Assembly (NCBI GenBank): GCA_964234715.1
Contig: OZ174283.1
Reading direction: 5' to 3' (one strand)
DNA: 64,000 bases
Source of the DNA: Podarcis melisellensis
Lineage: Eukaryota
A program made the position numbers and the translations under genes. Shown in pieces: positions 38,918 to 48,178 of this stretch. Numbering within the stretch: position 1 is the stretch's first letter; every line of letters begins with the position of its first letter. Below the pieces are notes generated by a model, which had not been told where the DNA came from, ran no database searches, and saw only the letters and a program-made list of their open reading frames with translations.

Positions 38918-39367
38918 CTGTAATTATTAGTTGTTTTAAACTGTTTTAAATATTGTGTAATATTGCATTAATATTAGTGTTGTATTTTAACTGTTGTAAC
39001 CTGCCCTGGGACCTTAGGGGCAGGGGTAATAAATTGTAGTAGTAGTAATAATAGCTCTCTATACCCTTAGCAAACTACAGTTCCCATAACTTTTTGAGAT
39101 GAATCCATGACCTTCTGAGGTATGATACTGCTATAAAATATATAGCACAGATAGAGCTTTGTTAGTATGGGACACAGGTAGTTAAACGGTTCAAGGATGA
39201 CATTTTTGTTACCTTATTTTCAGATTTGCTTATATTCAGGGCTGTGTTACAAGGCATGTTGCAAAATGTGATGTGTCTAGACAGTTTCTCACATGCTGTG
39301 CAGTGAGCACTACATTCCATTAAAGTTGTCACCATTGCTGACTTAAACATTTTAATTATAATTTCAG

Positions 39368-39487
39368 GTTCTGTTTGGGAGCAGCAGTCTCGATGGGGGA
39401 AGTAGTCCTATGGTAAAACCTAAAGATAAGCAAGTGGAATATTTAGATCTGGATTTAGATTCTGGAAAATCTACCCCACCTCGCAAG
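39368..39487 (+). CDS. GAB1: GAB1 coding exon 10 (YLDL SHP2 site)
   Basis: tttcag|GTT...CGC AAG|gtaaac, 120 nt. [40 protein letters not shown]. Confidence 0.96.
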
Positions 39488-39544
39488 GTAAACAAAACTG
39501 AGTGGTTTATTAGTGACAATATAGGTGCCTTTCTGGGGTTAACA

Positions 39545-39789
39545 TAGCAGCCGGCACAGCGATTTCTTCAAGTAGCTCTTTATTTTGTAAGCTGGAATAG
39601 AACTGACTGCAAACAGCTCAGCCGGCCTGCTTTTATAGGCAGCCGGCTGTCAACATTGTAACAACCACAGCCCAGAGTTCCCGCCTAAAATAACTGCTGC
39701 GGACCTGAGTGAAAACTATCTACAGACCTGAGTGAAAACTATATACAGTATCCCCCTGTTGGCCCAGGGTGAAACTACACTACATAACA
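39545..39789 (-). repeat. 3' LTR, truncated by about 20 bp at its U5 terminus
   Basis: 245 bp identical by eye to 44137-44381. Preceded on - by the polypurine tract GGTGGGGAGGGG (39790-39801). Confidence 0.95.
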
Positions 39790-39902
39790 CCCCTCCCCAC
39801 CGAGATAAGGCGTTAGTTACAATCGTAATGGTTTCCTTATATACAGCACTACGCGTAATGGTTCAATTAGGCACAAAAGCATATCGGTTACATTTACCAT
39901 AC

Positions 39903-40717
39903 TTAGACCAACAGTGATACATGTCCAACAACATAGTCCTTTAAATAAGTTGGGCGCTTGGAAACTCTGCCAGACCGCCGGGGACTGGTAGCCAAGTCCG
40001 GAGGGCCACACAGTTCTCGCTGAGGCTGTGGTGCGACCCTAGGTGGCGTTGGAACCAACTCCCCTGGATCCGCTGCTGTGGGTGGAGCCTCCGCAAGTGG
40101 AGTGGTCTGAGTCTGTTCTGAAGCGGCTTGGTTCGGCTCCACGCTGGTAGTTTGCGAGGGAGGTGTAGGTGGGGCCTCGCCATCTGTACGTGTCTCTTCT
40201 GGAGCTGCAAGCGCAGTTGGGGGCACCTCGGTAGTGTCCAAGTTCCCAACCCTGCGCCTAAGCTGGTCTATGTGCCGTCGCCACAAGCGTCCATCTTCGA
40301 GTGCCACCTGGTACGAGCGAGGTCCAGTGACTCCCACTACTGTGGCTGGCACCCAAGGAATGTCCCCCACATAGTTCCGGGCAAAGACCTGGTTTCCTGG
40401 GACAAATGACCGTGGCGCGTTGGCACAGCCTGGGGGTTCAGCCACGGTAAAGTCCGGGTGTAGCCGGTCGAGCGGTGACCTGAGGCGGCGGCCCATAAGC
40501 AGTTCAGCAGGACTCCTCCCTGTGGCCGCATGAGGGGTGATGTGTTGCACGAACAAGTATTCGGCGACCCGCTCATGCCAGTCTCCCCGGTCCAGGCGCG
40601 CCAGTGCCTCTTTTGCCGAGCGCACCATTCTTTCCGCTTGCCCGTTGCTGGATGGATGAAAGGGTGCCGTTAGGGCATGGCGGATGCCCAGTCCCAAAAG
40701 ATACCGCTCAAAGGTGG
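39903..40717 (-). pseudogene. Out-of-frame C-terminal half of integrase
   Basis: FERYLLGLGIRHALTAPFHPSSNGQAERMV (catalytic Glu), PHAATGRSPAELLMGR, GPRSY module, PRRSGRVSKRPTYLKDY tail. Confidence 0.9.
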
Positions 40718-43700
40718 AGTGGTGGAGGGCATCAGGGCGACCTCCAGCCATTTGGAATAGGCGTCCACCACTACCATAAAGGTCCGGCCGTGAAAGGGGC
40801 CAGCCAGATCGATGTGCACCCTCGACCAGGGTGTCTTTGGCATCTCCCAGGTGTGTCCCTTAGCTGCCGGTGGTGCAGGCCTCGACTCTTGGCACGCTTG
40901 ACAGGCGGACACCCAGGCAGTGATGGCATCGTCCATATTAGGCCACCAGACGTAACACCGAGCCAATGCCTTCATTTTGACAATTCCCGGGTGGCCAACG
41001 TGCAGAGCCTCCAGGACGCGCTGACGGAGTCCCTGGGGAATCACGACGCGGTCTCCCCACAGCAGACAGCCGCGATGAGCTGAGAGTTCATGTTGTCTGG
41101 TTGCGAAGGGCTGGAACTCCGATGCAAAAGGCCCTTGTGGCCACCCCCTCCACACCCAGTTGAGCACCCGGCTGATGGTGTGATCCTGGGCAGACGCGGA
41201 GGCCACAGTGGTAGCTGATACAGGCACTGCCGGAAGATCCTCAATCAGAAGGAGCGATGAAGCTGGAGCCGGGTCTTCCACAAATGCTGGAAGAGGGCAA
41301 CGGCTGAGGGCGTCGGCATGGCCCATCGATTTCCCCGGGCGATGGATGAGCCGGTAGTGGTAGGCAGCCAGGAAAACAGTCCATCGCAGCATGCGTGGCG
41401 AGAGGACCGGTGGAGTTGGACGATCACCGGCGAGGAGGCCCAGGAGTGGCTTGTGGTCAGTGATGAGGTCAAAAGTCCTGCCATAGAGGTATTCATGGAA
41501 CCTCTTCACTCCAGCCACAAGTGCCAATGCCTCCTTGTCGAGCTGGCTGTAATTCCGTTCCGTCGGAGATAGTGTCCTGGAAAAGTAGGCGAGCAGTGCT
41601 TCTCTTCCATCTGGAAAACGGTGACTAAGGACAGCACCAATGCCAAAAGGTGAGGCGTCGCAGGCAAGGACCAGCGGCCTGGATTCACTGTACTGTACCA
41701 GCACACTGTCTGAAGAAAGGAGAGCCTTGACCGCGTTGAAGGCCGCCGTCTCCCGATGACCCCAGGCCCAAGGCGTCTTAGTGCTAAGGAGTCGGTGAAG
41801 AGGCTCAGCCACTGTGGCTTTGTGGGGCAGGAACATGTTATAAAAGTTCAGCAGCCCCAGGAATGCCTGCAACTCCGTTTTGTTCTTTGGGGTGGGGGCC
41901 TGCTGGATAGCGCGGATCTTGGATGTGGTTGGGTGAAGGCCGGAGGCATCGATAAGATAGCCCAGGAACTCTACCTGTGGAACGGCGATCTGGCACTTCT
42001 CCCTCTTTACCTTGAGCCTGGCCTCTTGGAACCTGGTCAGCACGGCACGGAGGCGCTCGAACAGCTGCTGGTGTGAGTCTGCAGACACCAAGACGTCATC
42101 AAAATATGGTACCACGCCCGGAAGCCCTTGCAGGAGACGCTCCATAAGGCTTTGGAAGATGCCAGGAGCCACACTCACCCCAAACTGCAACCGGCGGCAA
42201 CGGAATGCCCCCCGGTGGGTGACGATCGTCTGGGCTTCAGCAGTGGCATCATCAACTGGCAGTTGTTGATATGCTTGGGCAAGGTCCAGCTTAGCGAAGA
42301 CCTTACCCTCACCCAGGGAATGCAGCAGGTGTTGGACAACAGGAACCGGATAAGCGTGCTGCTGAAGTGCCTTGTTGATCGTGCACTTGTAGTCAGCGCA
42401 GATTCTCACCGACCCATCTGGCTTGACAGGCGTGACGATGGGGGTTTCCCACTTGGCGTGGTCAACCGGCTCCAAAACTCCTTGGGCAATCAGTTTGTCC
42501 AGTTGTTCGTCCACCTTAGCCTTGAGAGCAAAGGGAACCCGGCGTGGCTTTAGCTTGATGGGGGCGACTTGTGGATCAAGGCTAAAGGAGATGGGCGTAC
42601 CTGTATATTGCCCCAAGGTGCCGTCAAAAACCTCGGCAAAGTCTTTGACCAGACCCTCAGTCTCTGCGTTAGAGATGCAGTTGATGCCGGTGACTTCCAG
42701 GCCGAGGGCATCAAACCAGTCTAGCCCTAGGAGGCTTGGCCGCTGACCTTCGACCACCACCAACCGGAGCAGGCCCGAAAAATCCTTGAAGGCGATCCGG
42801 AACCGGCCAACGCCTACCACGGGAATGTCGTTTCCCTGGTAGTCTCTCAGGTGTACGCGGTGAGAGTTGAGTTGCCTCTTGGACACTCTGGGTACCAGTC
42901 TTTTGATGGTGCTCCATGACACGATGGACAGGGCAGACCCGGTGTCGATCTCCATGTCACATGGAGCTCCTTCAATGAGCACCGTGACGTTCAGCTTGCG
43001 TCGCGTAGGCGAGTCGGTTTGGCCAATCGTGGTTCCAGACGGGCAGCGGCAGTTGGTGAGAGCGAAACAACTTTCCTTGGCAGACTGGAGTGAAGACTTG
43101 GACTTGCGAGTCGATGAAGGGGGGGTGTCAGACGGAGCCGATCGGCAGACCTTAGCGATGTGGCCCCTTCTGGAACACTTCCTACAGATGGCGTCTCTGA
43201 ATCGACACTTGGCACGGGAATGGTTGCCTCCGCAGCCGGCACATTCCGGTTGGCCCTTGGACTTCTGTTGGAACTTCCTGCGCTCCCGCTTTGTCTGGTG
43301 CACGTCATCGTCTTCACTGGAGGATGCCTCATCACTGCTGGCCTCTTCATGATGCACCGGAACTGGCTCCCTAGCAAGACGCGGGCTGCTGGACTTGCGG
43401 ATCTCCTGAGCGGAGCGTTCAGCAGCTTCTGAGGCCACAGCCTCCTCAATGGCTTTCTGTAGCGTGAGGTCTGGCTTGGCTAGGAGACGCCGTTGCAGAT
43501 GGATGTCCCGGACCCCGCAGACGATTCGATCCATCAGGGCATCGTCTAAGTCTCGGAACTCACAATGCATTGCAGCCTGGCGCAGGGCGGTGGTGTAGCT
43601 GTTGATTGACTCCCCCTCTGCCTGGTTCCGGTGGTAGAACGCATGGCGGGCAGCAATCTTGGACGGCTTTGGTGCATAGTGGTTGCGGAGCTTCTCTTGG

Positions 43701-43921
43701 ATCGTGTCCCATGGTGTTGCCTGGACTGCTTCAGGCGCAACCAATGCTCGGGCCGTCTCAAACACCTCAGGCCCACAGAGGCTGAGGAATAGGCCCCGCT
43801 TCCGATCCTTTGATACTGCTGTCAGCTCGTTGGCTTGGAGGTAGCAGTCGAACCGAGCGAGGTAGGAGTCCCATGATTCAGAGGCTGGCGCAAACGGCAG
43901 TAGAGGCACAAGTGAAGCCAT
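40670..43921 (-). CDS. Gag-Pol polyprotein (Gag, PR, RT, RNase H, N-part of integrase), frameshifted in the integrase core
   Basis: CAGCGGNHSRAKC and CRKCSRRGHIAKVC knuckles, IDTGSA protease, CADYK/LDLAQAY/YFDD RT, ACDAS RNase H, HVGHPG..CQAC zinc domain, HIDLAGP first catalytic Asp. Confidence 0.95.
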   Translation of the reverse strand: MASLVPLLPFAPASESWDSYLARFDCYLQANELTAVSKDRKRGLFLSLCGPEVFETARALVAPEAVQATPWDTIQEKLRNHYAPKPSKIAARHAFYHRNQAEGESINSYTTALRQAAMHCEFRDLDDALMDRIVCGVRDIHLQRRLLAKPDLTLQKAIEEAVASEAAERSAQEIRKSSSPRLAREPVPVHHEEASSDEASSSEDDDVHQTKRERRKFQQKSKGQPECAGCGGNHSRAKCRFRDAICRKCSRRGHIAKVCRSAPSDTPPSSTRKSKSSLQSAKESCFALTNCRCPSGTTIGQTDSPTRRKLNVTVLIEGAPCDMEIDTGSALSIVSWSTIKRLVPRVSKRQLNSHRVHLRDYQGNDIPVVGVGRFRIAFKDFSGLLRLVVVEGQRPSLLGLDWFDALGLEVTGINCISNAETEGLVKDFAEVFDGTLGQYTGTPISFSLDPQVAPIKLKPRRVPFALKAKVDEQLDKLIAQGVLEPVDHAKWETPIVTPVKPDGSVRICADYKCTINKALQQHAYPVPVVQHLLHSLGEGKVFAKLDLAQAYQQLPVDDATAEAQTIVTHRGAFRCRRLQFGVSVAPGIFQSLMERLLQGLPGVVPYFDDVLVSADSHQQLFERLRAVLTRFQEARLKVKREKCQIAVPQVEFLGYLIDASGLHPTTSKIRAIQQAPTPKNKTELQAFLGLLNFYNMFLPHKATVAEPLHRLLSTKTPWAWGHRETAAFNAVKALLSSDSVLVQYSESRPLVLACDASPFGIGAVLSHRFPDGREALLAYFSRTLSPTERNYSQLDKEALALVAGVKRFHEYLYGRTFDLITDHKPLLGLLAGDRPTPPVLSPRMLRWTVFLAAYHYRLIHRPGKSMGHADALSRCPLPAFVEDPAPASSLLLIEDLPAVPVSATTVASASAQDHTISRVLNWVWRGWPQGPFASEFQPFATRQHELSAHRGCLLWGDRVVIPQGLRQRVLEALHVGHPGIVKMKALARCYVWWPNMDDAITAWVSACQACQESRPAPPAAKGHTWEMPKTPWSRVHIDLAGPFHGRTFMVVVDAYSKWLEVALMPSTTPPLSGIFWDWASAMP

Positions 43922-44097
43922 GATTCCGATGCCGGCGTGAAGGGCGATGGATGGAACACAGTGCTCTAGCCAGAACAGTCAGCTCTGAATTGGTTCTGCC
44001 CAGTGATTTCGCTCAGTGATTTCGCTCTGTGATTCAGCTCAGTGATTCAGCTCAGTTCAGAGGCTGGCCGCATCTGGCTGTGCTCTGATGTCCATCC

Positions 44098-44115
44098 ATC
44101 CCACCTTCGTCGCCA
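44098..44115 (-). promoter_or_regulatory. Primer-binding site, complementary to tRNA-Ser(GCT) 3' end
   Basis: - strand TGGCGACGAAGGTGGGAT, 1 nt from the LTR. The + strand ATCCCACCTTCGTCGCCA corresponds to the vertebrate tRNA-Ser(GCT) 3' 18 nt as recalled. Confidence 0.85.
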
Positions 44116-44116
44116 G

Positions 44117-44381
44117 TATTAAGTTGTGGGTTGACATAGCAGCCGGCACAGCGATTTCTTCAAGTAGCTCTTTATTTTGTAAGCTGGAATAGAACTGACT
44201 GCAAACAGCTCAGCCGGCCTGCTTTTATAGGCAGCCGGCTGTCAACATTGTAACAACCACAGCCCAGAGTTCCCGCCTAAAATAACTGCTGCGGACCTGA
44301 GTGAAAACTATCTACAGACCTGAGTGAAAACTATATACAGTATCCCCCTGTTGGCCCAGGGTGAAACTACACTACATAACA
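44117..44381 (-). repeat. 5' LTR (265 bp)
   Basis: On +: tattaagttg...cataaca. On -: TATAAAA box and AATAAA signal. Internal tandem duplication gacctgagtgaaaactat(c/a)taca. Adjacent to the PBS. Confidence 0.95.
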
Positions 44382-44942
44382 GACAATATAGGTGCCTTTC
44401 TGGGGTTAACAAGACATATTGCTAGAGGTTCACTGGCATACTGGCAGAAATGTTTCACCAGTATAGATTTTCTTCCAGCATTGTCAGACTGTCAGAACAG
44501 GGGAAAATGAGACACATGGAGTGTGGTTGTGCATACACCATATAACACAGCCCTTGCCATGCCTTCAGAATTGGCAGACTATACTGAATCAGTGAAATGA
44601 GCTACTATAGTTCATTACCTCCCATTATAGTCATTGGGAGTGAAAAACTCTTCTCAGCTGGGCAATGAATCTGGCAGTCATTGTGTCAGGGAATTTTCTT
44701 TCTCCATCAAGATACAGGTAAATTTTTGTTTATTAAATTGTCCCAGGACAACTACTTATTTTTAGGAGAAAATGCTGTATTTAATATTTGCTTTTTCATT
44801 CCTCATTACCACATCACAATTAATACAGCTTTAAGAACTAAATGACTTTTATCATCAGCCTCACTAATTAAAATTGGCTTCTGTCTATTAATACTAAACC
44901 AGCTTTATCTATCAGTTAAAACTTGCCACCAGTAATCTAGCA

Positions 44943-47920: not shown

Positions 47921-48178
47921 CGTTAAGTTGTGGGTGAACATATCAGACCACACAGCGATTCTTCAAACAGCTCTTGTTTATTCACAGGCCAGAACAGAAC
48001 TGAACTGAAGGGTTCAGCCAGCCTGCTTATATAGAGCTCCACTAGAACGCAACAGTAACCATTTTCTGTAACTATCCAATCACTGAACGTCACTTTCGAT
48101 CCCTTATTTGCATATGTGGACCTGATCTATCTACAGTATCCCCCTGCTGGCCCAGGGTGAGAACTTCAGTACATAACA
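47921..48178 (-). mobile_element. Solo LTR related to the Gypsy LTRs
   Basis: cgttaagttgtggg...cagtatccccctgctggcccagggtga...acataaca. Perfect 5-bp TSD CAAGG at 47916-47920 and 48179-48183. Confidence 0.9.

Follow-up and report, generated by a model that had tools for sequence, protein, structure and literature searches.

Aberrant proviruses of avian sarcoma/leukosis virus (ASLV) and HIV-1 (human immunodeficiency virus, type 1) have one normal and one truncated end, short homology at the altered join and a long duplication of the target, and host polymerases have been proposed to build them, as set out in the accessible text of the report (PMC5041404). Unmutated xenotropic murine leukaemia virus-related virus (XMRV) gave 1 aberrant case in 15 integrations, clone C-3, which carries a 273-bp duplication and lost 5 bp from the end of its long terminal repeat (LTR) (PMC2857682, accessible part). 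Germline loci of HERV-K (HML-2), the human endogenous retrovirus K, have target duplications of 13-450 bp (PMC4422153, PMC5488345), long repeats that the available text of PMC4422153 ascribes to inefficient integration with host help. Here we describe a comparable locus in a 64,000-nt stretch of Podarcis melisellensis DNA (assembly GCA_964234715.1, contig OZ174283.1; hereafter the window), where a 4.8-kb Ty3/Gypsy retrotransposon lies antisense to the gene GAB1 between the copies of a 30-bp host duplication. The short target-site duplication (TSD) of 4-6 bp that typifies its family is absent. We hold with moderate confidence that integrase joined only the U3 end of this element and that the other end was attached by host repair, where 9 bases nearly match.

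The features that define the two junctions are, in window coordinates:

39515-39544, plus strand: left copy of the 30-bp host duplication, whose first 5 bp (GACAA) occupy the place of a normal TSD and are followed by TAT, the same as the LTR start
39536-39544, plus strand: junction microhomology, host GGGTTAACA against LTR GGGTTGACA, matching at 8 of 9 positions with the host base kept at the mismatch
39545-39789, minus strand: 3' LTR whose U5 stops 20 nt short of its terminus; it agrees with the 5' LTR at 245/245 positions
44117-44381, minus strand: complete 5' LTR of 265 bp on the side of the primer-binding site, with TG...TA termini on the element strand and a precise U3 junction at 44381/44382
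44382-44411, plus strand: right copy of the 30-bp host duplication, directly adjoining the precise U3 end

These letters bear out the structural description in the initial annotation, which had reported the perfect direct repeat, the precise U3 end, a 3' LTR short by about 20 bases (245 of 265 bp are left) with its 8/9 join, and an intact U5 ending in TA beside the primer-binding site. The two 30-bp copies are 100% identical and cannot be extended, their neighbours being T/T on the left and A/A on the right. With up to 2 mismatches allowed, the first 24 bases of the 30-mer occur at exactly two places in the 1.57-Gb genome, both at this locus, which rules out a dispersed repeat. The U3 end at 44381 is the same as in all family copies, as at an integrase-type junction, and the opposite end combines the hallmarks of aberrant integration: 20 nt of U5 lost, an 8/9 match and a 30-bp duplication. 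Random pairs of host and LTR 9-mers reached 8/9 identity in 147 of 962,208 cases (a frequency of 1.5e-4). An unusually LTR-like target was ruled out as well, an 8/9 match within 50 nt being present in 13 of 112 normal flanks.

In the route proposed here, integrase would transfer the U3 end to the target at GACAA, and the free host 3' end at the nick would prime 30 nt of synthesis along the intact strand. The new end, GGGTTAACA, would then pair at 12-20 nt inside the U5 end, which is still unjoined, and be extended into the element; pairing at that depth would cost 20 nt of U5 and retain the host base at the mismatch. This route appears the simplest, as a single template switch would explain together the duplication, the loss of 20 nt and the retained host base. 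The failure itself we would attribute, with middling confidence, to chance in one integration complex rather than to the TA terminus. TA is the form that prevails in the family, and it usually comes with a 5-bp TSD.

The anatomy resembles that of the aberrant ASLV and HIV-1 integrations in pairing a normal with a truncated end, in the short homology and in a duplication beyond the usual TSD; however, those cases arose in cultured cells and had been induced, by mutation of an end, by a drug or by a weak integrase, according to the accessible text (PMC5041404), whereas the window holds a germline Gypsy element whose end type is normal for its family and whose duplication is short (30 bp). XMRV clone C-3 likewise combines end loss with a long duplication and arose spontaneously among normal integrations, but it concerns a gammaretrovirus in a cell line, it was the U3 end that was lost, and the available part of the report mentions no microhomology (PMC2857682). 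That report cites a paper from 2000 on duplications made with less fidelity close to LTR-like targets. The HERV-K (HML-2) loci share with the window the character of a germline fossil with long flanking repeats (PMC4422153, PMC5488345); they differ in belonging to a retrovirus and in being mostly solo LTRs, and junction microhomology is not analysed in the accessible text of PMC5488345. We found no report of such junctions in vertebrate Gypsy elements, or of the TA ends of this family, in a search that lacked most subscription papers and the repeat databases.

We then compared the left junction with contigs, rather than raw reads, from 4 of 24 listed sequencing runs (X1, X19, X20 and X21). Run X19 is near-identical to the window DNA and is perhaps its source; its record 9 (695 nt, depth 46.8) covers 38950-39571 with no difference. 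This contig runs 49 nt beyond the point at which a normal junction would diverge, and it stops where 31-letter words lose their uniqueness to the junction. It has single-copy depth and runs unbroken through 39544, the point at which an empty allele would branch off, and the assembled animal therefore looks homozygous for the insertion. An assembly error is an unlikely source of the odd junction, because the contig of this near-identical run carries it unchanged. More specifically, reads from an empty haplotype could have overwritten the LTR end during assembly or polishing, via TAT and GGGTT.ACA; the double homology would permit such a merge, and 2 of the 3 same-sample runs lack cover of the junction, but the assembly-independent X19 contig has the junction without a difference or a branch, and we find an artefact of this kind barely plausible. 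In X20 and X21 the gap in cover starts at a GATC site, beside a conserved exon, and library type or a human-match filter may explain it.

Run X1 comes from another individual of the same organism. Its record 5 fits 39063-39540 and then continues for about 600 letters that do not fit, and depth from 39515 onwards shows no rise in X1 and a rise in X19-X21. Record 5 thus appears to be the empty site, which would make the insertion polymorphic. Empty templates of this sort bear on a later change in a heterozygote, in which the left junction broke, repair copied the empty homologue to 25 nt past the TSD and microhomology let the end re-anneal to the LTR, an aborted gene conversion. It would yield the same letters and, given the apparent polymorphism, its template exists; however, the copy is very young (identical LTRs, nearest family copies 0.3% different) and leaves little time, the matching sample has one unbranched junction, and the break would have to fall exactly at the junction. 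We consider this history clearly unlikely. We give next to no credence to a 30-mer that was tandem beforehand, with the element inserted between its copies (a pseudo-TSD, a model discussed for HERV-K in the accessible text of PMC5488345). The empty allele was not directly read, which leaves room for it, but the repeat contains no 5-bp TSD, it extends exactly to the precise U3 end, its two copies are identical, and the 20-nt loss and the microhomology would both be coincidences.

The family is young and large, with 257 exact U3 ends in the genome and a median difference to the window copy of 0.8% among 89 long matches. We examined 137 loci: 125 found by a U3 anchor, 11 others and the window copy. 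Five were set aside, namely L040 (same flanks as L041), L067 (an unclassifiable hybrid) and L042, L060 and L087 (U3 side open). L091-L092 and L179-L212, which were picked by other anchors and belong mostly to older subfamilies, also stand outside the counts. A short TSD was accepted with up to 2 mismatches in 5 bp, and 9 copies that the pattern had missed were assigned by hand. The 132 classified insertions comprise 80 with a TA and 52 with a CA end at U5, so that TA is the majority among the sampled copies. Both ends and a short TSD are present in 120 of the 132: 71/80 TA copies (66 with an exact 5/5 TSD) and 49/52 CA copies.

These counts bear on the cause that the initial annotation had proposed, namely that the CA-to-TA change made the U5 end a defective attachment (att) site and so a poor integrase substrate, producing a one-ended event. 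Both copies with long duplications, the window copy and L147 (below), are TA-type; the lost end of the window copy was probably TA as well, since the U5 ends agree in 84 of 88 two-LTR copies (and differ in 4); and loss of the U5 side is somewhat commoner in TA copies, 9/80 vs 3/52. That difference is not significant (Fisher p = 0.36, or 0.54 without solo LTRs), TA lineages have multiplied, as in a supported 9-copy all-TA clade of the gag-leader tree, and losses on the U3 side are seen too. As a sufficient cause the TA end is refuted by family members that carry it and integrate normally with 5-bp TSDs, the very pattern that the initial annotation had named as fatal to its proposal. The change is well tolerated by the family integrase, and a defective att site is not supported. 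The TA end may carry a small extra risk, the power of this comparison being low, and that it caused the event in the window is very improbable.

The initial annotation had also taken G to be the ancestral base, which fits the CA ends of older relatives and of the longest-branch rows of the tree. An older related solo LTR, which lies in this part of GAB1 at about 47921-48178, starts with CGTTAAG and has the TSD CAAGG on both sides, in agreement with the normally inserted solo LTR that the initial annotation had described. In the gag-leader tree of 91 copies, TA and CA are mixed, and both rows that fall outside the midpoint root carry CA. The tree does not support one origin of TA: it needs 12 changes, at least 3 of them forced by well-supported branches, although the bootstrap has not settled. 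So many TA/CA changes on one tree suggest recombination between family copies. Amplification with TG...TA ends and 5-bp TSDs resembles that of plant LTR retrotransposons with non-TGCA ends, which include the TGTA motif; those are 89% Copia (and may include Gypsy cases), whereas here a vertebrate Gypsy family has TA and CA ends coexisting and mixed across lineages (bioRxiv 10.1101/137141, accessible text).

Other family copies also depart from the normal structure, and the tally among the 132 insertions is 2 long duplications and 12 losses on the U5 side. The second long duplication belongs to L147/L173 (G000:C15:13678700-13684100, about 13.68 Mb), which combines a precise U3 end with a U5-side loss of 1,299 nt and a perfect host duplication of 1,667 bp. 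At the remaining truncated copies, a search of 11 right flanks against a further 10 kb of left flank for long duplications gave no match. Copy L038 (L038:4247-5031; G000:C1, about 16.826 Mb), 0.8 kb long, is bounded on either side by a U3 end and has a clean 5-bp TSD, its inverted 18-nt U3 end being joined at a short match inside gag. L077 (L077:3093-5004, minus strand) has a full 5-bp TSD and kept TATT, the first 4-6 nt of U5, before a loss of about 3 kb, and L076 and L065 kept 3-4 nt of the TSD on the broken side. Losses on the U3 side occur in L060, L087, L180 and L192; L087 (G000:C5, about 91.869 Mb) is TA-type and nested in a related LTR of greater age, where the target lacks about 1 bp. 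L137 was rejected as a truncated copy, being a normal insertion that was interrupted later.

The gap in the host could be measured only where the host is itself a repeat, which left out 8 of 12 truncated copies and 9 further copies. In all 4 measurable truncated copies no more than 5 bp separate the break from the target (L034 +5, L087 +1, L077 -5, L038 -5). Such closeness points to loss at the time of integration and suggests that end losses arise then; later deletions are possible for the unmeasured copies.

Several observations weigh against one-ended joining at the window locus, or thin the evidence for it. The X19 contig extends only 27 nt past 39544, below the 31-nt bar for bridging, and the left junction is seen in one of three matching-sample runs, X20 and X21 having no cover at about 39450-39514. 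The fit of the X1 contig ends at 39540, 4 nt short of 39544, and the empty allele is recognised by where that fit stops rather than from its own letters. L147 lacks microhomology at its junction and is known from the assembly alone, with no read check. L077 indicates that joining of both ends followed by damage at the U5 junction does occur in the family. The letters at the left junction are themselves ambiguous: they can also be read as a normal 5-bp TSD, GACAA, followed by the replacement of 20 nt of LTR with 25 nt of host, and TAT, which under one-ended joining must be treated as chance, is a kind of match to the LTR start (at least 3 bases after the TSD) that is found in only 5 of 112 normal insertions.

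This second reading corresponds to a route in which both ends were joined 5 bp apart and the junction was rewritten during gap repair by two template switches. The filling strand would enter the LTR (TAT), switch to the other junction via the shared 8 nt GACAATAT, copy 22 nt of target and return at GGGTT.ACA, so that 25 nt of host replaced 20 nt of LTR, which we take to be a templated insertion of the polymerase-theta kind. It accommodates the homology found at either end of the tract that was replaced (TAT and the 8/9 match), a short insertion with a short loss, and the damage that starts at the TSD in L077, L076 and L065. Against it stand the need for two switches and the 2 of 112 normal insertions that have both features and stayed normal, and the 1,667-bp duplication of L147 is unaccounted for. 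Our literature search for this route in LTR elements found no paper describing it. We regard rewriting after two-ended joining as possible but less than probable, and we prefer joining of the U3 end alone, in whose favour the L147 duplication speaks. One-ended joining is not proven, because two-ended joining with templated rewriting would leave an identical sequence, and to place the copy strictly in the one-ended class would go beyond what sequence alone can decide. Accordingly, of the proposal in the initial annotation that the copy is a germline fossil of the one-ended pathway, the structural match to published aberrant integrations stands and the one-ended step is probable only to the degree stated above.

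The remaining features of the element and its host gene are:

39368-39487, plus strand: GAB1 exon, 39/39 amino acids identical to residues 600-638 of Podarcis muralis GAB1, with AG/GT borders
39790-39798, minus strand: polypurine tract, adjoining the 3' LTR
39903-40712, minus strand: putative downstream part of the integrase reading frame, within the open reading frame (ORF) 39903-40859 and out of frame with the main ORF
40670-43978, minus strand: gag-pol single reading frame (gag, protease-like, reverse transcriptase, RNase H and integrase zinc finger) in Ty3/Gypsy order
40712-40718, minus strand: site of a 94-bp internal deletion, a frameshift in the integrase region private to the window copy
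44098-44115, minus strand: primer-binding site of 18 nt, matching the 3' end of serine transfer RNA (tRNA) genes of the same genome, with 1 spacer base to the LTR

With two LTRs, a tRNA primer-binding site and a polypurine tract, the window element is a Ty3/Gypsy LTR retrotransposon. Pfam domains follow the Ty3/Gypsy pol order in gag-pol (RVT_1 at residues 500-655, RT_RNaseH at 720-854 and Integrase_H2C2 at 961-1015), and the best solved relative is Ty3 Gag-Pol (E 5e-70). A Pfam search with ORF 39903-40859 alone gave no match; from its place after the zinc-binding domain, and partly from its motifs, we take 39903-40712 to be probable integrase sequence. The anchors around the deletion site lie 43 apart in the window copy and 136-137 apart in 87/87 other copies measured, and the joined sequence across the deletion is present in none of the other family copies fetched. 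Both this deletion and the TAT after GACAA had gone unremarked in the initial annotation. The LTR is short and its start, TGTTATGT, fits the Mag C motif TGTNATRT, and CA-type copies end in ACTTAACA, which has 7/8 of the Mag C motif AYANAACA (PMC3601003, Table 3, in its accessible part). Motifs of this length carry little weight as evidence; the TA end deviates from the Mag C motif, and the likeness is one of LTR motifs.

The target site begins 27 nt into the intron that follows the GAB1 exon. An exon upstream of 39368-39487 matches GAB1 of Podarcis muralis and P. lilfordi with 100% identity.

The survey also turned up features of the family at large. Mismatches (1-2 within the 5-bp TSD) occur in 6 of 103 pattern-scored copies, several of them very young and often with the mismatch at the edge; in the very young copies they may reflect gap-repair errors. 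The primer site comes in two variants, with 59 and 46 matches, and the tRNA-like genes in the genome whose 3' ends they match form a separate set for each variant; recopying of the site from the primer would be expected to give this pattern. Six loci (L181, L182, L185, L197, L198 and L209) hold a short, internally deleted relative of about 1.3-1.4 kb where both LTRs exist, with the same internal break and a different U5 end, likely a non-autonomous subfamily. L040 and L041 (G000:C1, 22.52 and 22.58 Mb) are one insertion with the same flanks, present twice 60 kb apart as a segmental or haplotype duplicate, one of which has another insertion in its LTR.

In aggregate, the anatomy of the window copy fits known aberrant integration, germline fossils of which are already in print for HERV-K (PMC4422153, PMC5488345, in their accessible parts), and the locus adds a Gypsy element to the known cases and reveals no new mechanism. 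An outcome of faulty integration known from retroviruses thus also scars the germline through a vertebrate Gypsy element, at a rate that can be counted, and such copies escape tools that require TG...CA ends and a 4-6-bp TSD. A bolder proposition, which we think doubtful, is that about 1 in 10 insertions of the family leaves integration with one end rebuilt by the host, and that the window locus arose by two-ended joining with a double template switch in gap repair. If that were true, a family with TA and CA ends and hundreds of near-identical copies would be a natural experiment in which germline integration errors can be counted by end type.

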